Assembly (NCBI GenBank): GCA_964586015.1
Contig: CAZPHK010000003.1
Span: 358-64,357 of the forward strand
From: an uncultured Acidobacteriota bacterium
GTDB taxonomy: Bacteria; Acidobacteriota; UBA6911
Direction of reading: 5' to 3'
DNA: 64,000 bases
The position numbers and the translations under genes were made by a program. The notes beneath the pieces were generated by a model, which saw only the letters and a list, made by a program, of their open reading frames with translations, did not search any database and had not been told where the DNA came from. Positions 4,049-15,923 of this stretch are shown one piece after another; position 1 is the stretch's first letter, and each line of letters opens with the position of its first letter.

Positions 4049-4486
4049 GACTCCACAACAGTTCATTCCTGATCCCAAAGCTGCGGCAGGTCGTCGTCCA
4101 TGAATCTTCAACAAAAAGAGGAAGGGAGTCATTGAATGACCGGGGATAAAAACTGCTATTTCCTCTTGCGTCGATATGCTGCTAGCATCTATCCGGATCG
4201 GTTGTAGGATAGGGAATGAATCTCGTTTTCGTTCAAGTCGCTCGGTATTACAGTGCAGGCCGCTTTCATGAGAGCTTCGTCAATGATAGTCTGACCACTT
4301 AACGCGCCGGTCAACAGCAGCGTAGAGAATAAGAATGCAACGCGCTGTGGAATTCGGTATTCAGTCATGCTCATTTCCTAGGGCCTCTTCTCGGTCTGAT
4401 AAGTTTATGCAAATGCGTCGTCGCTCACGACATCGCCCAACAGCCGCCTTTATTTATAAAGTCTGCATTATTTAGAAAACTACATA

Positions 4487-5091
4487 GACTGGTTATAGTT
4501 CAAGATATATGAAGTGTAAAATTCTCAATGCGGGATAATTTTAGAACACTTCCATGCAGGAGAATAAAACTTTCTTCAATGGCCTCTGTAAGGAACTAAA
4601 GACAAAAGGGAAATTTCGGGCGTTTCATTAATATTTTGTTTATTGTGTAATAATGGAACATCGATTATTTGAGAAATCCTTTCGAGCTTTTCAATAAGGC
4701 GGGATGATATGACCGATTGCCCTTTCTGCACGCGAATCAACCGTTCGGACATCATCGCCGGCAATGAACTTGCCGCTGCATTTTACGACGGCTTCCCGGT
4801 GAGCCCGGGTCACACGCTGATTGTACCGCGCAGGCACGTGGCCGATTTTTTCGCCCTGACCGGCGAGGAGCAGGCGGCGATGTGGACGCTGGTCGCTGCC
4901 GTGCGGCGGATCCTCCAAGAAAAGCACGCGATCGACGGGTTCAATATCGGCATCAATATCGGCGAGGCGGGCGGCCAGACGATCGCGCATGCCCACCTGC
5001 ACGTCATCCCCCGATACGCGGGCGACGTCCCCGATCCGCGCGGCGGCATCCGATGCGTGATTGCAGCGAAAGCACGCTACTGGAAGGAGCC
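4487..5091 (+). repeat. Copy 1 of a perfect 605-bp direct repeat (leader + HIT gene)
   Basis: Identical to 9238-9842 (offset 4751). Every track ORF inside it recurs with an identical protein. Confidence 0.95.
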
Positions 5092-5095
5092 CTGA
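4709..5095 (+). CDS. HIT (histidine triad) family nucleotide hydrolase/transferase, copy 1
   Basis: 128 aa with histidine triad HAHLHVIP. N-terminal CPFC is typical of small HIT proteins. Confidence 0.9.
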   Translation: MTDCPFCTRINRSDIIAGNELAAAFYDGFPVSPGHTLIVPRRHVADFFALTGEEQAAMWTLVAAVRRILQEKHAIDGFNIGINIGEAGGQTIAHAHLHVIPRYAGDVPDPRGGIRCVIAAKARYWKEP

Positions 5096-5328
5096 CTGAA
5101 ACCACCTGCCCCCTGTGCGGGGAAGAAAGCCTGCAAACAATGCAGGGCACGTTCCGCTTCGATCCGCCACCCAACATTCCCGGCGGAACCATGATCATTC
5201 CGAATGCAACGTGGCAGCACTGCACTGCCTGCAACGAGGACATTATTCCATACGAGCTGGATCAGGCTATCGATCGCGAGCATGACAGACGGCTGGGACT
5301 ACCCGACCTCGAGAAGGGGCTTTCTTAA
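5053..5328 (+). CDS. YgiT/MqsA-type zinc-ribbon protein with no HTH domain
   Basis: CPLCG...(31 aa)...CTAC, followed by a short helical tail. Start is uncertain: ATG 5053 lies inside the HIT gene, or CTG 5092 overlaps the HIT stop at the position where copy 2 has ATG. Confidence 0.6.
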   Translation: MRDCSESTLLEGALTETTCPLCGEESLQTMQGTFRFDPPPNIPGGTMIIPNATWQHCTACNEDIIPYELDQAIDREHDRRLGLPDLEKGLS

Positions 5329-5424
5329 AACGCTTCACATTCTACTGCCGTTTCTCCGGATCCAGACTTTTATGAAAGATACTATAATGGGATATAGACG
5401 GTTGCAGACGGGGAAAACACTAAA

Positions 5425-5895
5425 ATGATTGAGTTTAAAACAGGCAATATTTTCTCTGAGGATGTTGAAGCCTTGGTTAATGCCGTCAATTGCGTCGGGG
5501 TTATGGGACGCGGAATTGCTCTCCAATTCAAAAAATTATGGCCTGCAAATTTTTCTGCCTATACTGCGGCATGCCACAGGAATGAAGTTCGGCCAGGACA
5601 AATGTTTGTTTTTGAAACAGCCCGCTTAACAAATCCGCGCTATATTATCAATTTTCCGACTAAACTCCACTGGCGTGATGCCTCACGTATTGAAGATATC
5701 GAGTCGGGGCTCGCCGCGCTCGTCGTAGAGATTCGAAAGCGGAATATTCAATCAATAGCGTTGCCGGCCATTGGCGCTGGTCTGGGCGGACTGTCATGGG
5801 ATGCAGTCCGCGCTCTTATCATGAAAGCGATGAAATCAGTCGCCGGAAGAAAAATTGTTGTTTACGGACCATACAGTGACAATGATTCACCCTAA
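5425..5895 (+). CDS. Macro domain protein (ADP-ribose binding / ADP-ribosyl hydrolase type)
   Basis: 156 aa. GNIFSEDVEALVNAVNCVGVMGRGIALQF and ALPAIGAGLGGL match macro-domain signature regions. Confidence 0.85.
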   Translation: MIEFKTGNIFSEDVEALVNAVNCVGVMGRGIALQFKKLWPANFSAYTAACHRNEVRPGQMFVFETARLTNPRYIINFPTKLHWRDASRIEDIESGLAALVVEIRKRNIQSIALPAIGAGLGGLSWDAVRALIMKAMKSVAGRKIVVYGPYSDNDSP

Positions 5896-5994
5896 AAGGT
5901 TTAAAACATCCGGTACGTGAAACGTAGAATAAGCCTCATATGACACCTGCAACCGAGCCAGGGAGGATTTGCCTCCATACCGATTTTTATTACA

Positions 5995-6023
5995 TTGACT
6001 ATTAATAGAATAGGTGTATAAAT
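5995..6023 (+). promoter_or_regulatory. Candidate sigma-70 promoter for the HD gene
   Basis: TTGACT (5995-6000), a 16-17 nt spacer, then TGTATAAAT (6015-6023). About 100 nt upstream of ATG 6127. Confidence 0.4.
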
Positions 6024-6126
6024 GGTGAATATAGATTGCAAAACAAAATTGCCAATTGATTTATAAGTTTCTCAGACAATGCTTCTTGTTATCAGATAAA
6101 TCAAAAGCTCGTGCGAAATCAGAACT

Positions 6127-7452
6127 ATGATCAAGAATATTCATGAAATCCGGGACCCGATACACGTTTTTGTAAGAATGGACACCGATGAGCGTAAGGT
6201 ATTGAATTCCCGGGCATTTCAGCGATTGCGGCACATCCACCAATTGGCCTTGTCTTACCTGGTATATCCCGGCGCCAGCCACAAACGATTCGAGCATTCA
6301 CTGGGTGTGATGGAATTATCCGGCAGAGTTTTTGATATTGTCACGCATCCGGATTCAGTCTCGGAACAAATACGAAAAATTTTGCCCGAAATTGCTATTG
6401 AAGACAAAAAGAGATATTGGAGGCGTGTAATTCGAATGGCGGCATTGTGCCATGACATCGGCCATCTGCCATTTTCACATGCAGCGGAGAAGCAGCTGCT
6501 TCCTGACGGGTGGGATCATGAACGGCTAACCAAAGAAATAATTCTTTGTGAGGAGATGCAAAAAATCTGGTCCGAAATGACTCCCCCTATTCGACCCGAA
6601 GATATTGTAAAACTGGCGGTAGGACCAAAATCCGCTGCCATGCCTTTTTCAAGTTGGGAGGCCATTCTTTCCGAAATCATTGTTGGGGATGCTTTCGGTG
6701 TCGACCGCATGGACTACCTGCTGCGGGATTCTCATCATATCGGAGTCAGTTATGGGAAATTCGATCATTATCGCCTGATCGACACACTCCGCATTCTTGT
6801 ATCTCCCTATGATGAAGAAAATGCAAGATTTTCCGAGCCAGTCCTCGGGGTTACGGAAGGCGGGATTCAATCCGCAGAAGCGTTGCTTCTGGCAAGATAT
6901 TTTATGTACTCCCAGGTTTATTTTCACCCCATCAGGAGAATTTATGATATTCATCTGATGGATTTTCTTAAGGACTATTTACCTGACGGCAAATTCTCAA
7001 CGGTAATTGATGATCATCTTCAAATTACAGACCATGAAATTATTGCATCTATGCTTGATGCGGCACGCAATTCCTCAAAAAGGGGTCATAAAACCGCAAA
7101 GAGAATTACGGATCGCCGGCATTTTCGTATTTTATACGAGCGTAATCCCGATGATATAAAGATCAATCCGGAAGCCGGGCAAGCAGTCTATGAGGCTTTG
7201 CTGGAGATATTCGGCGATGAAAACCTCAGACATGATAAAGATACACAGAAAGGCAGCGCTCATAACTTCCCGGTTCTCACTCGTGATGGTAGGATTGTTT
7301 CTTCCATGGAAATTTCGGAAGCATTGAATAATTTGCCTCTTATTGCAGTGGATTATGTGTTTATTGCGCCGGAACATAAAAAGGATGCTGAAGCATGGCT
7401 ACAAAAGAATCGTGAACGCATCATAGCGGCAAAATTTGAGGAGGAAGCATGA
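6127..7452 (+). CDS. HD-domain phosphohydrolase, SAMHD1-like dNTP triphosphohydrolase family (COG1078 type)
   Basis: 441 aa. Motifs HKRFEHSLGV, CHDIGHLPFSHAAE and FGVDRMDYLLRDSHHIGVSYG. Confidence 0.85.
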   Translation: MIKNIHEIRDPIHVFVRMDTDERKVLNSRAFQRLRHIHQLALSYLVYPGASHKRFEHSLGVMELSGRVFDIVTHPDSVSEQIRKILPEIAIEDKKRYWRRVIRMAALCHDIGHLPFSHAAEKQLLPDGWDHERLTKEIILCEEMQKIWSEMTPPIRPEDIVKLAVGPKSAAMPFSSWEAILSEIIVGDAFGVDRMDYLLRDSHHIGVSYGKFDHYRLIDTLRILVSPYDEENARFSEPVLGVTEGGIQSAEALLLARYFMYSQVYFHPIRRIYDIHLMDFLKDYLPDGKFSTVIDDHLQITDHEIIASMLDAARNSSKRGHKTAKRITDRRHFRILYERNPDDIKINPEAGQAVYEALLEIFGDENLRHDKDTQKGSAHNFPVLTRDGRIVSSMEISEALNNLPLIAVDYVFIAPEHKKDAEAWLQKNRERIIAAKFEEEA

Positions 7453-7994
7453 ACCGGCTAAAAAACTGCGTTTTGATACTGGAACTCTTAGAAAAGCTAA
7501 AGGATAAAGGAAGCTGGTGCGGAGAAACGCACATTCAGAAAGCTTCTTACTTTTTAAAAACGCTTGCAGATGTGCCTATGGATTTCGATTTCCTTCTGTA
7601 CAAACACGGGCCTTTTTCTTTTGAATTACGCGACGAATTAACGGCAATGCGAGCGGACGGATTGTTAAGCCTGCAGTCAAAATTTCCATACGGCCCGACG
7701 CTGGTTATCACGGACCAGGGCCGGGATCTTTTAAAAAAATTCCCGGTAACTTTAAAAAAATACAAAACCAACATTGATTTTGTTGCTGATAAATTGGGAA
7801 GCAGAGGAGTGGCCGATCTGGAAAAATTAGCGACCGCACTTTACGTCATAAAAGAGGAATCCTCCAGCACAACCAAGGAACAATACATAGCACGCATTAA
7901 CGAAATAAAACCACACGTCACTTTGCAGGAAGCTGAAAACGCCGTCGAAAAAGTTCAAAATATTATGGACGAATTCGTGACAGCTCAGGACTGA
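7449..7994 (+). CDS. Small partner protein of the HD gene; DUF4065/Panacea-like or YwgA-like (tentative)
   Basis: 181 aa with an ATGA overlap onto the HD stop. THIQKASYFL...FLLYKHGPFSFELRDEL resembles the KLQKLLYF...GP core of SocA/Panacea-type domains. This is recalled from memory, not searched. Confidence 0.6.
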   Translation: MNRLKNCVLILELLEKLKDKGSWCGETHIQKASYFLKTLADVPMDFDFLLYKHGPFSFELRDELTAMRADGLLSLQSKFPYGPTLVITDQGRDLLKKFPVTLKKYKTNIDFVADKLGSRGVADLEKLATALYVIKEESSSTTKEQYIARINEIKPHVTLQEAENAVEKVQNIMDEFVTAQD

Positions 7995-8099
7995 TACATT
8001 GAATGCAGTCAATCATCGCAGAATATCCTGCCCTGCAATGGAAAGCACCGAATGTCCGCGGATATAAAAAATTCGGGATAAGATATCCGTAGAAGATGT

Positions 8100-9083
8100 T
8101 CACCGCCGGAAGCAATGATCGCGGTGCCAGGACAGCGCCGCGGGATCGGGACGGCAGATCGGATTCGATGGTGCAACAATTCCTTCACCGTCGTACTCTT
8201 CGAGGTCGAACTTCTGCCTTTCGGCGCGGTGAACCGCGGGGCTGACCAAAGCTTCACTGGCATCCGAAATTGTGAACAGGCCGGCGTCGAAGGCCCAGTG
8301 GTGGCGCTTGCACAAGGAAATCGCGTTGCGAATGTCATCGGGTCCCCGGTCTGCCACAGGGATGATATGGGCTGCTTCCGCTTCGCTGAGCAGTGTATCC
8401 TGTTCCCTTAAAACGAACATGGAGCGGCACAGGCAGCAAATGCGGCCGTACTCCGCCGACACCAGAAGCTTGAATGCCCGGTCACGGGCTTCACGGCTGG
8501 AGATGTAGCGGCTTCTTTCCTCCGCGATCGTCATGGGGAGGATTAATCCGCTTCTCAGATAGGTCTCTTCAATTTGCTCGGGAGTCCCAACCCCGGCAAA
8601 GGGCTCTATTACCGCAGGCGTGCTTCCCGTGACGCGAAAACGGCGGCTCCCTGCATCAAATGAAGTAAGCAGGGCCGGTCCCAGTATGCGGTAGCGGGCG
8701 CCCTCCGGATGTCCCGATCCCCTGGAGGTCACGATGACCAGGAGGGGCTGTTTGTCCTCCATGCATGCGAACAGAGATCTGTTTACCGCTGAATCCAGCG
8801 CCCCTGATTTGGCTGCATATTCCATCAGCCAGCCGCCATCAGGGGACTGACTGAACTCATCGGAATATATTTCGGCATCGGCACCGACCGCGGACCTGCT
8901 CCAGACGGCAAATGCATACCGGCTGTCTTTGGGTTTGAAGATGCCTTCAATCAGCGGGTGAATCTGCGAAATCCCGGCTGAAGGAGCGTGACGATCCGTA
9001 TGGCGCAGAAAATCAGAGGTGACGTCAAGACCGGTATATTTCGATAAGGCAAATATTGCGCGCAGACGCTGTTCAGGCGTCAT
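8100..9083 (-). CDS. HNH (HNH_2-type) nuclease with an N-terminal putative modified-DNA-reading domain; possibly the 3' part of a TAG-interrupted gene
   Basis: 327 aa. C-terminal AAHIIPVADRGPDDIRNAISLCKRHHWAFDAGLF is an HNH motif. An in-frame 41-codon ORF (9093-9215) lies directly upstream, separated only by a TAG. Confidence 0.75.
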   Translation of the reverse strand: MTPEQRLRAIFALSKYTGLDVTSDFLRHTDRHAPSAGISQIHPLIEGIFKPKDSRYAFAVWSRSAVGADAEIYSDEFSQSPDGGWLMEYAAKSGALDSAVNRSLFACMEDKQPLLVIVTSRGSGHPEGARYRILGPALLTSFDAGSRRFRVTGSTPAVIEPFAGVGTPEQIEETYLRSGLILPMTIAEERSRYISSREARDRAFKLLVSAEYGRICCLCRSMFVLREQDTLLSEAEAAHIIPVADRGPDDIRNAISLCKRHHWAFDAGLFTISDASEALVSPAVHRAERQKFDLEEYDGEGIVAPSNPICRPDPAALSWHRDHCFRR

Positions 9084-9237
9084 GATTCTCTATCCCCGGA
9101 AATTGGTATCGGCATGCCAATCCAGCAGCTCCTTATTGGGTCTTTTGACCGGATCTTCAGAAGCAGGGAAATCAATCCATCCCCTGTCCGTGATGCCGAC
9201 ATAGGTTTTCAGCATTGGCTAATCCCACAAATTCTTC

Positions 9238-9842
9238 GACTGGTTATAGTTCAAGATATATGAAGTGTAAAATTCTCAATGCGGGATAATTTTAGAACAC
9301 TTCCATGCAGGAGAATAAAACTTTCTTCAATGGCCTCTGTAAGGAACTAAAGACAAAAGGGAAATTTCGGGCGTTTCATTAATATTTTGTTTATTGTGTA
9401 ATAATGGAACATCGATTATTTGAGAAATCCTTTCGAGCTTTTCAATAAGGCGGGATGATATGACCGATTGCCCTTTCTGCACGCGAATCAACCGTTCGGA
9501 CATCATCGCCGGCAATGAACTTGCCGCTGCATTTTACGACGGCTTCCCGGTGAGCCCGGGTCACACGCTGATTGTACCGCGCAGGCACGTGGCCGATTTT
9601 TTCGCCCTGACCGGCGAGGAGCAGGCGGCGATGTGGACGCTGGTCGCTGCCGTGCGGCGGATCCTCCAAGAAAAGCACGCGATCGACGGGTTCAATATCG
9701 GCATCAATATCGGCGAGGCGGGCGGCCAGACGATCGCGCATGCCCACCTGCACGTCATCCCCCGATACGCGGGCGACGTCCCCGATCCGCGCGGCGGCAT
9801 CCGATGCGTGATTGCAGCGAAAGCACGCTACTGGAAGGAGCC
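9238..9842 (+). repeat. Copy 2 of the perfect 605-bp direct repeat (leader + HIT gene)
   Basis: Identical to 4487-5091. Confidence 0.95.
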
Positions 9843-9846
9843 ATGA
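9460..9846 (+). CDS. HIT family nucleotide hydrolase/transferase, copy 2
   Basis: Protein identical to copy 1. The only difference is the last codon, CCA versus CCC, both Pro. Confidence 0.9.
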   Translation: MTDCPFCTRINRSDIIAGNELAAAFYDGFPVSPGHTLIVPRRHVADFFALTGEEQAAMWTLVAAVRRILQEKHAIDGFNIGINIGEAGGQTIAHAHLHVIPRYAGDVPDPRGGIRCVIAAKARYWKEP

Positions 9847-10943
9847 CCGTTTCAACCGGCACGGACGCGACTATTCGTTTCGCGGAAAAAATACTGGAGC
9901 TGCTCGAGGAAGGCAGATTCAGCACCACGTACAAACTTGCAGTGCTGCTGGCGCTGATGGATCTCTGTTTTGAAAAGAACGCCGCCGCCGGAATGGCGCC
10001 CGAAAGCGTGACCACGCGCCAGCTCGCGGAGAAGATCATCGAAATCTACTGGCCGCATACGGTCGACTATCATTCCACGGCAGCGGTACTGAAACAAAGT
10101 AGGGGAAAACAGGCGCAGATCCCGGCCGCGATCCTGCGGTTTCGGCGCGATCAGGCGCGCATTGCGACAGCGTCTCTGCACCGGGCAAAGGGTGCCAATC
10201 CTTTGGAATATGAGCGTCTGGTGCGATCTGTGGAATGGACCCTGGTCGAAATGCCGCTCCCGAGACTGCAAACGGTCGGCTTGAGTCGCGATCCCTTCAT
10301 TTATGAAATCAACTGGGACGAAACGGTGCGCCGGAGAGATCTGTACCATGACTTTGACAACCTCATCCGCTTCAAACCGGGCGCCGGGGATTGTTTAATT
10401 CAGCTCAACAGCCTGCTGCGCCCGCTTGTCCACAAGAAGTGGGCATCGATGGTCTCCCATATCAATAAGCTGCCGGAAAATCAGCTGGAGGATTTCCTGT
10501 TCGGGATCGACCGTTTATCCAGCGCGAGGATCCGGGAAAGCCTCTGGGAAATTCAGGGGAAGGACTGCTTTTACTGCGGGGAGCGCATTCCCGAACCGCG
10601 TCGTGGAGATGTGGATCACTTTATCCCCTGGTCGCGCTATCCCGATAACGGTCTGGAAAATCTGGTAGTGGCGCACAGGCGCTGCAACAGCGACAAGCGA
10701 GACTTTCTAGCCGCCACCGGGCATGTGGAACGATGGGGAGGACGGTTCTCTTCGGATCGGACCGGATCGACGGACCTGGCGGTGCTCGCCGAATCCGCAG
10801 GATGGGAGAGGGATCCCGTCAAAACCCGGGGCGCTGCGAGGGCACTCTATCTCCGCTTGCACGCCGATGCCCGGCTCTGGAGCGAAGGCAAGAGCTTTGT
10901 AACTCCCGACTTTCCCCGGCTGCATGCGGCACTGTGCGATTGA
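9843..10943 (+). CDS. HNH endonuclease with a large N-terminal domain of unknown function
   Basis: ATG 9843 overlaps the HIT stop (ATGA). C-terminal CFYCG...DVDHFIPWSRYPDNGLENLVVAHRRCNSDK is an HNH motif. The track ORF from 9633 is an out-of-frame overlap with the HIT gene. Confidence 0.8.
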   Translation: MTVSTGTDATIRFAEKILELLEEGRFSTTYKLAVLLALMDLCFEKNAAAGMAPESVTTRQLAEKIIEIYWPHTVDYHSTAAVLKQSRGKQAQIPAAILRFRRDQARIATASLHRAKGANPLEYERLVRSVEWTLVEMPLPRLQTVGLSRDPFIYEINWDETVRRRDLYHDFDNLIRFKPGAGDCLIQLNSLLRPLVHKKWASMVSHINKLPENQLEDFLFGIDRLSSARIRESLWEIQGKDCFYCGERIPEPRRGDVDHFIPWSRYPDNGLENLVVAHRRCNSDKRDFLAATGHVERWGGRFSSDRTGSTDLAVLAESAGWERDPVKTRGAARALYLRLHADARLWSEGKSFVTPDFPRLHAALCD

Positions 10944-11204
10944 AGGATATCCGTGTTCCTTCTTCGTACCGTGGTTCCGGGCCCGTCGGCTCCGGCGTAT
11001 TGATATTCTCAGAGTATAAAAGGGCGAATGGCGTCTTTGGGCCGAAGCTCGCAAACCTCCCGCTGTGAATTAGGATTCCCGGCCGGCCAATTCGTTAAAA
11101 CGTTGCGTTCGAATGCAACGCTTTCGGGGACGCAGAAGTGTTTTACGCCGTCAGCTGCCGGTGAACAGCCGGCGCGGCTGCAATTCATTCCAAAGGAGAA
11201 CTCC

Positions 11205-11987
11205 ATGCGCTATGAAGAATTTCGGGATCACCTGCAAATCGCTCTTCGGGATGCGGGGATTCTGCGGCAGAGTTATGTCACCACGAACGAGTCCATAGAC
11301 CTTAAAACCACGACACGTCACCTGGAAATCTACATTTCGGGACCATCGAATCCCGATACGGAACCGTTTTACGTGTCGGCGAAGATAGCGTTCGACTGGA
11401 ACCCCTTCGACTCCGCCCGCTCGTATACCTGCGAGGAAGACCTGCTCACGGAGCTGCTCGGCCGCGGGAAAACTCCGTCAAGGATTCGACCCCGGCATAC
11501 TCGCGTCGATCTCGTGCTGCGAGCGAACCTCCCCTGGGGTTCAACAGCTGCTGTCCCTGAACCCCGGATATTTGGTACCTGGGCAGCCTCTTTGCGGCAG
11601 GAGCTCGATGAAGTGTTCACGGAAAGCAGCTGGCGCCGCGGGCAACTCGCAGCCATACTTGGATCCCTGGAAGAAATCCACATCGATTCAAAGCCCGATT
11701 CCACCGGTCGTCTTTCGATCGAGGGCTTATCTATTAAAGGATTCCGCATGGTTCGCGTCCCGAGGATTTGGGACGACCCGGACCGGCGCGAAAAGGAAAA
11801 GGGCGCGGGAACGGAACTCGCCCGGCTCGCCAGAAAGTTCCGGTACTCGATGGAAGAATGGAATACGGCCATAATCGAACTTTCCAGATGGATACGATAT
11901 GCACCCCCCCCTGATGATGCGAAGCGGACAGCGCCTCCACCGAAGAGAAAGTCTCATGACGATGGCGGTCCGGAAACGATTCACTGA
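11205..11987 (+). CDS. Hypothetical protein
   Basis: ATG 11205 follows AAGGAG (11192-11197). 260 aa with no recognisable motif. Confidence 0.5.
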   Translation: MRYEEFRDHLQIALRDAGILRQSYVTTNESIDLKTTTRHLEIYISGPSNPDTEPFYVSAKIAFDWNPFDSARSYTCEEDLLTELLGRGKTPSRIRPRHTRVDLVLRANLPWGSTAAVPEPRIFGTWAASLRQELDEVFTESSWRRGQLAAILGSLEEIHIDSKPDSTGRLSIEGLSIKGFRMVRVPRIWDDPDRREKEKGAGTELARLARKFRYSMEEWNTAIIELSRWIRYAPPPDDAKRTAPPPKRKSHDDGGPETIH

Positions 11988-12163
11988 CGGAGACGGCTCT
12001 CTACGATTCAAGCCGCCGCCGTCAGACTGTTGCTGCAGGTAATAATTCATGATAAATGGTTGTATTTTGTAAGGATGAGGCTTGAGTTTATGGATGTATA
12101 ATCAGGCTTCTGCTGAAAGAGCCGGGAAAGGTCGAACGATTAAACGACAGGGAGTAAGAAATC

Positions 12164-13438: not shown

Positions 13439-14935
13439 TCAAACTCCGGCTTCGTCTCGCCAGAGATGAAGCGCCCGGCCGGGTGCGGGATCATCCCGGT
13501 AAGTGTCGAAAACTTCGCACAGCATGTCCGCCAGATACGCCATGCTGCCGATCGTCCGGGTCCTCGTTTCGGCATCGATAAGCCGCTTTATCTCGAGAAA
13601 ACGAAGCCACGCCGGGATCAGCTCAAAAAGGGCGGCCGTGCGGTGATACAGCTGGTTCATCATTTCCAGCTGGCGGGCAAGATAGTGTTCCAGCCTCTCC
13701 GGGTCCGGAACCAGCAGGTGTTCGTAGCGCCGGTATTTCCGTTTGGGCTTTCGCCGCCGCTTTTTCTTCCGGCCCATGTCCCGCTCGACGGATTCCAGCA
13801 GGCTTCCCCTGTATTCCAGCCCGCCGTTATGCCGTTCCACCAGGAACCGGTATAGTTCCCTCCTTCCGAGTTCCCCCTTGGCACAGGGTACGCCCTCGAC
13901 CCGGCCCAGATAGCCCAGGAATTCCAGGGTCAAATGATAAAGATTCAGCTCGCCGTCCGAATGACTGTCCCCTTCCTCAATCGCGTCTTCTTCATCTTCT
14001 TCATCCATGCCGTTCCGGGGGGGCGGAAGCTTGAAATCGTTCATCGTCCACTGCCTCCCGGTTCCGCCAGCGAGATTCGCGAGATTAGCGGCTATCTCCT
14101 TCTCATCCGTTTCCCCGTAAAACCTTAGCTGTTCCAGCAGCCCGGCATCCGGCCCGACCGTCCCGGGCGTCCGCTCCGCAAAGTTCAGGATTTCATAGAA
14201 CATGGCACGGATGCGGAAATCATCCACGCCCCATGGGACGATATTGTCCGAAGACTCCACATGCGGCCAGGCAATGCGCATGGAATCGACGAGAGCCTGC
14301 AACTGGCCGTGATATGCGGACATTTCTTCAGTCCGGTTGAAAAGGTCGATATCGCGGCCAGCCAGAAGGGCCTGCTCCTTGAGGAGATCCGGGAGATTCC
14401 CGTACCGGGCATCGGCCAGTGCATTTTCAATCCGCCATTTCACTAAAAAGGGCGCTTCCGCCGCATAGGTTTCGGGCAGGCGCAGGCGCAGATTTTCGAC
14501 CATCGCATCAAAGCGGTTTCGCTCTCCATGTTCGACGGTTTCGTCGAAGAGATCCTGCAGCATCTCATACGCCATGTCCCCGTCCATTAGCTCCGGATCG
14601 TCCAATGTCCGGCTGAAAATGCCGAACTTGTCCTCGTAATCGGCGGCCTCAAACTCCTCCAAAAGCTCCTCGAAGACTTCCAGCTGAGGTCCCTCTTCCC
14701 AATCCTCCGATTCAAGATCCTGATCGTCATCTTCCAGGGACGATTCCCAATCCTCTGCATCAGCTTCAAAATCCACGTCATCTTCCAGGGACGATTCCCA
14801 GTCCTCTGCATCGGCTTCAAGCTCGGCTATTTGGGCTTTCCTTATTTCTTCGTCTTTGGCAAGGCAGCATTTTTTATATTTCTTTCCGCTGCCGCAATGA
14901 CAGGGTTCGTTGCGCCCCGGCATCTTCCGATTCAT
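13439..14935 (-). CDS. SEC-C motif protein with an acidic tandem repeat
   Basis: PCHCGSGKKYKKCC near the N-terminus. The start at 14935 (MNRKMPGRNEPC) has an AAGGGA RBS and avoids overlap with the upstream gene. Confidence 0.7.
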   Translation of the reverse strand: MNRKMPGRNEPCHCGSGKKYKKCCLAKDEEIRKAQIAELEADAEDWESSLEDDVDFEADAEDWESSLEDDDQDLESEDWEEGPQLEVFEELLEEFEAADYEDKFGIFSRTLDDPELMDGDMAYEMLQDLFDETVEHGERNRFDAMVENLRLRLPETYAAEAPFLVKWRIENALADARYGNLPDLLKEQALLAGRDIDLFNRTEEMSAYHGQLQALVDSMRIAWPHVESSDNIVPWGVDDFRIRAMFYEILNFAERTPGTVGPDAGLLEQLRFYGETDEKEIAANLANLAGGTGRQWTMNDFKLPPPRNGMDEEDEEDAIEEGDSHSDGELNLYHLTLEFLGYLGRVEGVPCAKGELGRRELYRFLVERHNGGLEYRGSLLESVERDMGRKKKRRRKPKRKYRRYEHLLVPDPERLEHYLARQLEMMNQLYHRTAALFELIPAWLRFLEIKRLIDAETRTRTIGSMAYLADMLCEVFDTYRDDPAPGRALHLWRDEAGV

Positions 14936-14975
14936 ATTCCCTTTCTTCTGCAGGTCTGAGGGGATACGCTTTTTT

Positions 14976-15923
14976 TCATTTCGGGCTTTCAATAACCGGT
15001 ATTTCCCATAAAGGCTGGTGCTCTTCTTCACTCGTCAGGTAGAGCGTCTTTCCATCCGGACCGTAGCAGATGGATTCGCCCTGTTTGCGAGCCGGCGCTT
15101 TAATGATCCGGGGTTCTCGCGAGAATGCCCGGGCCCAGGTTTCGCCTTCCCCGCGGGAATATTCATACGCATCGCCGTATGTCAGGACGACGGCGCGATC
15201 ACCGTCCGGGGAGATATCCATCCCATTGGCATAGCTGACTTTGAGCCGGGCAATCGGTTTTGCGATATTCGGCTCTTTTGATTCTTTCGCCGGAAAGGGC
15301 ATGGAATAAACCGTACATTCTCCGACATCCTTGCTGACAAGATAGATCGTGGATTCGGCCGGGTCCACCGCCACTGCTTCACTATCAAGGGGCCCGTTTT
15401 CATACCGGAAGCGGATCTGAAAATCCGGTTCGACTTCAACGACCGGCGCTTCTTTCGCCGTGGAGTGGATGCCGATCGCGGGTTCCCTAATAATATACAG
15501 GACGTAGCTTTCGCGCTTTCTTGCATTGTCTCCTGTATCGGCGATCAGAACGTAATCCTCATTTCCGCGCCTGAACGATGCAATATCCTCCCAGTCGACG
15601 GCAGCCACCCCTCTGATATTGACCACGGCAAGGGTCCTGCCTTCCTTGTCGATCAGGAAAATGCGGGCGGAGTCCCCGGAATCATTGTGCGTCCAGAATG
15701 CATCTTTGTATCGAATGGACGCCGCGATGCCGCTGGATTCGTTTATGCGGGCATCCTCGAGCTGCGACAACTCCCTTGGCGGACCGTATTGCAGGGGCGG
15801 GACGGATTCGGCGCCTGTCCGCACCGAAACGGAACGCGCACAATTCGCCGACATCAGGCAGAGGGACAGCAGCACCGGGGCAAAAAAGACAGAAGCGGAA
15901 TTTATTTTTGATCGCATTCGCAT
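14976..15923 (-). CDS. Secreted beta-propeller-like protein of unknown function
   Basis: 315 aa with a signal peptide (VFFAPVLLSLCLMSANC). Recurrent SSG / DxGD / PDG strand motifs. Confidence 0.6.
   Translation of the reverse strand: MRMRSKINSASVFFAPVLLSLCLMSANCARSVSVRTGAESVPPLQYGPPRELSQLEDARINESSGIAASIRYKDAFWTHNDSGDSARIFLIDKEGRTLAVVNIRGVAAVDWEDIASFRRGNEDYVLIADTGDNARKRESYVLYIIREPAIGIHSTAKEAPVVEVEPDFQIRFRYENGPLDSEAVAVDPAESTIYLVSKDVGECTVYSMPFPAKESKEPNIAKPIARLKVSYANGMDISPDGDRAVVLTYGDAYEYSRGEGETWARAFSREPRIIKAPARKQGESICYGPDGKTLYLTSEEEHQPLWEIPVIESPK

Follow-up and report, generated by a model that had tools for sequence, protein, structure and literature searches.

Type IV enzymes of the GmrSD type consist of a DUF262 NTPase and a DUF1524 His-Me nuclease, and the ring nucleases of type III CRISPR systems and the type VII toxin-antitoxin (TA) pair HepT/MntA act as signal-degrading off-switches and enzymatic antitoxins, respectively. 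To our knowledge, no type IV enzyme with a partner of the histidine triad (HIT) family has been described. Here we report on a HIT gene and an HNH nuclease gene that form a pair in a 64,000-nucleotide stretch of DNA from an uncultured Acidobacteriota bacterium (contig CAZPHK010000003.1); this whole stretch is referred to below as the window. PADLOC-DB v2 contains no model for such a HIT-nuclease pair. Furthermore, a full-text literature search on HIT combined with HNH, defence or type IV returned no paper on the pair, but only a remark on ThsC, the HIT protein of the PADLOC system 'Thoeris type II', which its authors hypothesised to make or degrade a nucleotide signal (PMC8565338).

The findings described below support the view that the HIT and HNH genes form a genuine module, which is conserved and had not been described before. 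What sets it apart among nuclease-based defence and restriction modules is the combination of an enzymatic HIT partner with an orphan N-terminal domain (N-domain) of the nuclease. Judging from sequence, we hold with moderate confidence that segment 9434-10959 of the window represents a self-contained, mobile, restriction-like defence module, in which the HIT enzyme would control or assist the nuclease via a nucleotide ligand or adduct. If the pair is indeed a defence system, it would bring in a Fhit-type HIT protein, an enzyme class for which no role in prokaryotic immunity has been characterised. It would further link immunity with the chemistry of dinucleoside polyphosphates or nucleoside monophosphate (NMP) adducts, whose role in bacterial signalling is long-debated.

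Anatomy of the HIT-nuclease pair and its two enzymes

The pair resides in an islet at ~4100-12000 of the window that shows a mosaic guanine-plus-cytosine (GC) content of 42-62% and lies between CoA-transferase genes and respiratory-type genes. The HIT gene of the pair is the second of two copies and is therefore named copy 2. The features of the pair are:

9434-10959, + strand: mobile unit with the HIT and nuclease genes plus 26 bp on the 5′ side and 16 bp on the 3′ side; the sole stretch in common with the closest relative, locus L164
9460-9846, + strand: HIT copy 2, 128 amino acids (aa), putative Fhit-branch histidine-triad enzyme with the motif HAHLHVIPRY and, towards the C-terminus, the subfamily motif DPRGGIRxVI..YW (Pfam HIT, E=5.9e-23)
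9843-10943, + strand: nuclease gene, 366 aa, encoding N-domain, HNH domain and C-terminal helical region (from the list of open reading frames (ORFs) and the sequence)
9843-10532, + strand: N-domain, residues 1-230, mostly helical, with a conserved T-x-Y-K helix (STTYKLAVLLALMDL)
10566-10712, + strand: HNH_4 (Cas9-type) nuclease domain, residues 242-290 (Pfam HNH_4, E=1.7e-10)
10713-10940, + strand: conserved C-terminal helical region, residues 291-366 (with invariant residues; confidently modelled)

The 3′ end of HIT copy 2 reads ...GAG CCA TGA, and its stop codon is overlapped by the nuclease ATG at 9843 (ATGA). This overlap, which the initial annotation had pointed out, can be seen directly in the sequence (9460-9846 and 9843-10943).

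More than 1215 homologues of the 366-aa nuclease were found, which share ~50% identity and are conserved over the full length. The only Pfam matches of the protein are HNH_4 and HNH at residues 242-287, and a profile search of the PDB retrieved Cas9 HNH domains (3e-7). The CxxC...DH...N...CN zinc and catalytic motif that typifies HNH_4/Cas9-type domains is present, and residues C242, C245, D258, H259, N273, C281, N282 and K285 are invariant in the alignment of homologues, so that the protein is predicted to be a nuclease. A complete HNH motif had been placed in the last ~90 residues of the ORF; the motif is indeed complete, but it occupies residues 242-290 and is followed by 76 conserved residues. 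Among the latter, W298, R301, A332, R333, Y336, R338, W346 and F352 are invariant. An AlphaFold2 (AF2) model of the nuclease was obtained with a predicted local distance difference test (pLDDT) score of 83 and a predicted template modelling (pTM) score of 0.85, and a Foldseek search with this full model retrieved only Cas9 HNH domains.

The part ahead of the HNH domain had been described as ~270 residues without a family. The lack of an assignment was borne out, albeit for ~230 residues. Searches with the whole protein and with 17 N-domain sequences gave no match to this part in Pfam, NCBIfam or PADLOC, and a sequence profile gave none in the PDB. Structure comparison did not yield a fold either, as the best hits of the N-domain-only model in Foldseek searches of the PDB and BFVD had E values of 1.6 and 1.3, respectively. 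A resemblance to MukE-like tandem winged helices (TM ~0.25) was too poor to be used. Likewise, none of the sequence and fold searches supported the suggested likeness of the STTYKLAVLLALMDL helix to helices of DNA-modification readers. This T-x-Y-K helix is the hallmark of the N-domain: 67 of 67 paired nucleases have it, and it is seen again in other HIT-linked HNH proteins. An N-domain profile detected 1844 clusters at 50% identity, most of which combine the N-domain with HNH. In one protein (P0317), which has an extra N-terminal extension of ~105 residues, the N-domain is followed by the restriction-endonuclease-like NOV_C domain in place of HNH, and in another (P0274) the N-domain and HNH are followed by a C-terminal S24 LexA-like peptidase. 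These architectures indicate that the N-domain is a separable module placed ahead of nuclease domains. With more than 1800 clusters and no detectable relative, this family is a candidate for a new sensing or targeting fold.

The HIT protein contains the motif GGQTIAHAHLHVIPRYAGD, in which the histidine triad HxHxHxx is preceded by GQT and continued by a Fhit-type PRxxGD, as is characteristic of the Fhit branch. Its closest solved structures in a PDB search were bacterial and archaeal HIT proteins, Ap4A phosphorylase and Fhit, and no aprataxin chain was present among the 44 PDB matches at E<=1e-3. An assignment to the aprataxin branch, which removes 5′-AMP from DNA and has an attached DNA-binding zinc finger, was rejected on this ground; a zinc-finger ORF follows HIT copy 1 only and is not conserved elsewhere. 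Residues H94, H96 and H98 are invariant in the subfamily alignment, and the subfamily has an additional conserved C-terminal motif, DVxDPRGG[IV]RWVIPxKAxYW. The HIT protein is best read as a catalytically active member of the Fhit branch. Since the HxHxH triad is intact in 67 of 67 paired HIT proteins and the catalytic residues of the HNH domain are invariant, both enzymes appear to be under catalytic selection.

Conservation, coupling and mobility of the pair

The initial annotation had called for a survey of HIT-HNH co-occurrence and had stated that its absence from other genomes would speak against a two-gene module. The pair is in fact kept across phyla. Specifically, scanning one genome per species, we found the nuclease encoded in 539 species-representative genomes (~0.3% of the representatives) that belong to the Acidobacteriota, Gemmatimonadota, Myxococcota, Actinomycetota, Methylomirabilota, Planctomycetota, Elusimicrobia and Proteobacteria. 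Neighbourhoods were inspected for 80 fetched nuclease loci out of these 539. In 55 of the 80, the nuclease gene is immediately preceded by a HIT gene on the same strand; in three, the HIT gene is convergent and immediately downstream, and in two it is located ~0.8 kb upstream. Viewed from the HIT side, 71 metagenome loci extended far enough downstream to be compared, and in 33 of them HIT is directly followed by the gene for this nuclease. At locus L004, the nuclease gene is immediately followed by a convergent operon (7239-8143, − strand) in which a SprT-like metalloprotease gene precedes the HIT gene; L054 and L068 have a convergent HIT gene as well.

The two genes are tightly coupled. A 4-nt NTGA overlap was observed in 50 of 88 pairs and a 1-nt overlap in six, while nearly all others are no more than 10 nt apart. 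Two of the 88 pairs (L070 and L132) are read-through HIT-nuclease ORFs. In addition, HIT, N-domain and HNH are fused in the separate clusters P0113, P0271 and P0291, with partial versions in P0298 and P0385, and the in-frame fusions retain both active sites. The divergence of the HIT proteins correlates with that of the nucleases (Mantel r=0.42, a value reached by 0 of 999 permutations). Clustering of all neighbouring ORFs at the 80 loci revealed no third conserved gene; the ORF that follows the pair in the window (11028/11205-11987, + strand, 260-319 aa according to the start codon chosen) matches no family and has no homologue in the related loci. Cross-phylum adjacency, translational coupling and natural fusions thus bear out the earlier proposal that HIT and HNH form a two-gene module.

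With the putative antitoxin gene in first position and a 4-nt overlap with the second gene, the arrangement is reminiscent of classic type II TA pairs; the unit is also mobile, of small size and carried by plasmids. The HNH protein would then be self-toxic, and the HIT protein would neutralise it by binding or by a type VII-like modification or demodification that is lost upon infection or plasmid loss. Toxin and antitoxin can also be joined in one protein, as in CapRel. We nevertheless consider such a function unlikely. About 20% of the nuclease genes have no HIT gene nearby, and their catalytic motifs are still intact; moreover, the invariant HIT triad would be superfluous in a simple binding antitoxin. 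Altogether, a strict antitoxin-first logic is disfavoured by the HIT-less loci, by the reversed and convergent gene orders, and by the occurrence of HIT next to type IV-like nucleases (see below), which are not expected to be self-toxic.

The context of the pair is variable. The closest relative, L164, shares with the window only segment 9434-10959, at 84% DNA identity, whereas the flanks are unrelated. This indicates that the 1.5-kb unit moves as a block. Members of the nuclease family are located on 14 plasmids or chromids. One of these is the conjugative plasmid 2 of Aromatoleum aromaticum EbN1, which carries a HIT-nuclease pair with a 4-nt overlap that is flanked by insertion sequences (IS) (L162, 5684-7056). 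In this cultured strain, the annotated HIT protein has only 106 aa, and its alignment begins at query residue 22. As the gene directly follows an IS21 element, it may be 5′-truncated; genes for an SOS-response-associated peptidase (SRAP) and H-NS are located 3′ of the nuclease gene. A search of 50,697 phage genome records with the nuclease family gave no match.

Repeated HIT copies, exchanged partners and neighbouring genes

The HIT gene of the pair is part of an exact direct repeat, of which the other copy is located upstream in the same islet. The features of this region are:

4487-5091, + strand: repeat copy 1, with leader and HIT copy 1 (gene 4709-5095)
9238-9842, + strand: repeat copy 2, with 222-bp leader and HIT; its junction is matched in the independent contig L081
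5092-5328, + strand: YgiT/MqsA-type zinc-finger ORF after HIT copy 1 (NCBIfam TIGR03831, E=5.6e-4, 20.1 bits against a cut-off of 20.2)
5425-5895: DarG-like macro domain gene (NCBIfam DarG, 6e-73, model positions 1-151)
6127-7452: gene for an HD/HD_assoc_2 protein
7449-7994: gene for a DarG C-terminal-like protein, with an ATGA overlap with the HD gene
8100-9083, − strand: HNH_2 endonuclease gene, 327 aa (Pfam HNH_2, 3.8e-12; NCBIfam NF045808, 8.4e-21, below the cut-off)

A base-by-base comparison showed that the repeat measures 605 bp, with 100% identity between 4487-5091 and 9238-9842 (offset 4751). It comprises the AT-rich leader of 222 bp and nearly all of the HIT gene, ending with the second base of the last (Pro) codon, and the HIT proteins of both copies are identical. 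The copies first differ in the third base of this last codon (CCC TGA in copy 1, CCA TGA in copy 2), which is why copy 1 has a CTG at the position of the nuclease ATG of copy 2 (CTGA versus ATGA). Copy 2 is real, since its junctions are reproduced by L081, a contig from an independent assembly that spans 38 bp of the left flank, the whole repeat and the nuclease start at 99.8% identity. For the junctions of copy 1 there was no independent record, and exact-protein look-ups of the macro, HNH_2 and nuclease proteins of the window matched nothing. The leader has no Rfam family and no significant fold (folding z-score -0.08), and a riboswitch or other structured leader 5′ of HIT was rejected for these reasons.

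The initial annotation had remarked that the same HIT gene is paired 4.75 kb upstream with a different partner. The identical copy is there, within the exact repeat, but the presumed partner, the zinc-finger ORF, has no canonical start codon but a CTG that overlaps the HIT stop, and the DarG-like cluster behind it has a separate origin. The zinc-finger ORF has no homologue among 160 related loci, and it could reflect either termination-reinitiation at a non-canonical codon or a decaying gene. Thus, HIT copy 1 and this ORF do not clearly make up a second functional pair. At 5425-7994, a DarG-like antitoxin appears to be split over three genes. No DarT toxin gene was seen, and a DarTG system was rejected because this partner gene is absent. 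The GC content of the cluster (42-46%) differs from that of the HIT-nuclease pair (56-62%), which indicates that the cluster was acquired separately.

A similar arrangement was encountered in an unrelated genome, a Myxococcota metagenome-assembled genome (JAWLBL010000005.1; L012, 1-8300), where three tandem copies of leader and HIT with 96-98% DNA identity are spaced by 2966 and 2595 nt. Their cargo consists of an unknown protein plus a metallo-beta-lactamase-fold protein, of a protein with an IrrE-like domain, and of an N-domain-HNH nuclease followed by HNH_2 and a SIR2-kinase, respectively. The first HIT copy is disrupted before the His triad. The fact that L012 mirrors the arrangement in the window points to a role of HIT copies as anchors for recombination, and tandem near-identical copies with different cargo suggest a route by which effectors could be exchanged in defence islands. 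One could go further and regard leader plus HIT as a portable adaptor cassette: near-identical copies would anchor effector swaps, HIT would couple the effectors to a common alarm nucleotide (Ap4A/Ap3A or an NMP adduct), and the T-x-Y-K N-domain would be a new sensor fold. We regard this idea as doubtful; if true, it would reveal an unknown HIT-based regulatory layer of bacterial immunity.

The same observations could also be taken to mean that there is no functional link at all, either because a selfish homing-type HNH gene inserts beside HIT, or because leader plus HIT is merely a platform for expression or recombination. In the window and in L012, near-identical copies of HIT and leader precede different cargo, the breakpoint between copies 1 and 2 of the window falls exactly at the downstream start codon, and HIT proteins with and without a nuclease are equally similar. 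Yet HIT and nuclease enter unrelated contexts together and show correlated divergence, in-frame fusions keep both active sites, the other partners of HIT are not homing endonucleases, and the nuclease family had no match in the 50,697 phage genomes searched, where homing HNH genes abound. On balance, the lack of any functional link is very unlikely.

As had been anticipated in the initial annotation, one HIT subfamily is combined with several nuclease types. Besides the nuclease of the window, its partners include SRA-HNH (L093), HNH_2 (L095 and L127), PLD-helicase (L131) and MTES_1575-helicase (L130) proteins. At at least eight HIT loci, a differently built HNH_4 protein of ~350 aa is encoded directly upstream of HIT. 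This group has an N-terminal invariant Y-K within a T/S-Y-K-F/Y-A-L helix, and a profile comparison with the nuclease family of the window was significant over the HNH region only. For the N-termini of the partners at L095 and L127, the profile comparison with the N-domain was not significant. Partner types agreed between nearest neighbours among the HIT proteins in 43 of 72 cases, compared to 24±4.5 expected by chance. Together with the identities between HIT proteins, which amount to 51% for different partners and 53% for the same partner, this indicates that partners have been exchanged often.

These partners raise the question of whether HIT might be a helper of restriction that works in parallel to the nuclease, on a nucleotide substrate related to the phage or to cleavage. 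Such a helper could destroy the donor for phage DNA modification, strip adducts from DNA ends and thereby block the resealing of nicks, or detoxify unusual nucleotides that are released. The same HIT subfamily is indeed found beside type IV-like nucleases that need no gating, namely the four types listed above, the neighbours are often type IV-like enzymes, HIT has no fixed position relative to its partner (upstream, downstream or convergent), and the HIT sequences are not separated by partner. However, the tight coupling and the repeated fusion suggest a physical and stoichiometric relation between HIT and nuclease, there is no aprataxin-type similarity that would fit a role at DNA ends, and the data do not name a specific substrate. 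A helper role in parallel to the nuclease is therefore, in our opinion, rather unlikely. As to a role of HIT in desulphurising nucleoside phosphorothioates set free by phosphorothioate (PT)-dependent nucleases, this was set aside because the N-domain does not resemble a sulphur-binding domain (SBD) and most partners are not PT-specific.

Restriction and defence genes are found around the module. Its commonest immediate neighbours are HNH_2 restriction-type nucleases (9 of 137; PADLOC 'HNH' PDLC04132), including those at L001, L002 and L012. The HNH_2 protein encoded at 8100-9083 of the window resembles phosphorothioate-DNA restriction enzymes in its C-terminus, its N-terminal 190 residues have no assignment, and no PDB sequence matched it; the gene is probably an associated restriction gene rather than a core part of the module. 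A PLD-helicase-DUF3427 protein of ~1030 aa with the type IV architecture of SauUSI is encoded within 5 kb at 9 of 80 nuclease loci (L013, L034, L037, L039, L040, L052, L060, L064 and L076), and it adjoins the nuclease at the HIT-less loci L034 and L040. Counted without a genome-wide background, at least ~24 of the 137 immediate neighbours match PADLOC models at E<=1e-8. These include HNH_2, type I/II methyltransferases, a type IV restriction endonuclease, JetA (Wadjet), ZacA, PD-T4-6, AbiEii, PDC-S01/S41 and capP-like proteins. On Acinetobacter baumannii plasmid pPUMA0052_1 (L163, 5775-6987), a HIT-less family member of 339 aa is encoded immediately upstream of the BREX genes BrxR(WYL)-BrxA-BrxB-BrxC. 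At that locus, an overlapping 66-aa ORF of unknown family precedes the nuclease gene. Further downstream in the window, the − strand at 13439-15031 encodes a protein of 530 aa that has acidic repeats and a SEC-C-type CHCGSGKKYKKCC motif.

Some genes of the surroundings would also be compatible with a DNA-repair or housekeeping pair, in which an aprataxin-like adduct remover would be joined by a nuclease for damaged ends or DNA-protein crosslinks. These are the S24 LexA-like fusion (P0274), the SprT-like gene with HIT (L004), SRAP on the Aromatoleum plasmid, and IrrE/M78. Of all the explanations considered, we give this one the least credence, as the distribution is sporadic (~0.3% of the species representatives), the context is variable, IS-flanked and plasmid-borne, restriction and defence genes are the neighbours, and HIT falls outside the aprataxin branch.

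Proposed function and comparison with known systems

In the interpretation that we favour, a mobile defence module in which HIT acts on the nuclease, the nuclease would be the effector, with a Cas9-type HNH active site that is joined to the N-domain and probably cuts DNA. The N-domain would presumably pick the target or take up an activating input. Translational coupling would ensure that HIT is produced in a fixed proportion to the nuclease, as it would be when both are made as one polypeptide in some lineages. HIT itself most likely hydrolyses or transfers a nucleoside-monophosphate compound, which might be an alarmone of the dinucleoside-polyphosphate type such as Ap3A or Ap4A, or an NMP adduct. 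In this way, HIT could set the timing of cutting, for instance by holding down the level of an activating ligand until infection occurs. Gating of the nuclease by a nucleotide signal, as proposed in the initial annotation, would be one form of such a mechanism. As the module measures only 1.5 kb, has catalytic residues that can be mutated and occurs in natural fusions, these ideas are easily testable.

Several observations weigh against this interpretation. About 16 of the 80 nuclease loci have no HIT gene within 6 kb while their catalytic motifs are intact, and HIT is therefore not always needed in cis. About one-third of the HIT-subfamily loci are without a nuclease partner, some of them being located beside def, ptsI or ppa, so that HIT may have a general cellular substrate. 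Given the nearly equal identities of HIT proteins with different and with the same partners, a generic helper fits as well as a specific regulator. Housekeeping genes are numerous among the immediate neighbours of the module, and the estimate of defence enrichment refers to immediate neighbours, with no genome-wide background. Lastly, the N-domain gives no clue to a ligand.

Of the described systems, the Thoeris-associated protein ThsC is the sole PADLOC match of the HIT protein of the window (42 bits). Both are HIT-family enzymes that are, or would be, attached to a defence system, but the likeness is at the general HIT level and excludes the C-terminal DPRGGIR motif of the subfamily, and ThsC is itself uncharacterised. 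Thoeris was rejected, since neither ThsA (SIR2 or Macro/SLOG) nor ThsB (TIR) is present among the ORFs of the window or the conserved neighbours. The best PADLOC and NCBIfam matches of the nuclease outside Cas9 are Septu PtuB and the retron-associated HNH proteins, which likewise are HNH_4-type defence effectors. These profile matches are weak (34 bits) and cover the HNH domain only, whereas the N-domain and the C-terminal region are unrelated. Septu and retron-HNH systems were rejected, as neither the ABC-type ATPase PtuA nor a reverse transcriptase is encoded in the window or in the conserved neighbourhood of the 80 loci.

In its presumed way of working, the module is more akin to the ring nucleases and HepT/MntA, where a small nucleotide-processing enzyme is likewise co-encoded or fused with a nuclease effector and tunes its activity via a ligand or nucleotidyl adduct. 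However, their fold is unrelated to HIT, and the HIT-nuclease module contains no signal synthase and no recognisable ligand-binding domain (CARF, SAVED etc.). The GmrSD enzymes also combine a nucleotide-handling part with a His-Me-finger nuclease, either as a pair or as a fusion; they differ in having a ParB-like NTPase where the present module has a HIT hydrolase or transferase, and there is no sequence relation.

The McrA-type type IV HNH enzymes (EcoKMcrA and ScoMcrA/SprMcrA) should be considered as well, not least because the nuclease family is auto-annotated as 'McrA' by JGI. Membership by reader domain was rejected, as the N-domain has no sequence or fold match to a modified-DNA reader (SRA, sulphur-binding domain or EcoKMcrA N-domain) in Pfam, NCBIfam, the PDB or Foldseek. 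Nevertheless, the two share the build of a single chain with an N-terminal non-catalytic domain followed by HNH, as well as the restriction neighbourhood beside HNH_2 and SauUSI-like type IV enzymes. The nuclease of the window differs from the McrA-type enzymes in that its HNH domain is of the Cas9/HNH_4 type and is accompanied by an obligate-looking HIT partner.

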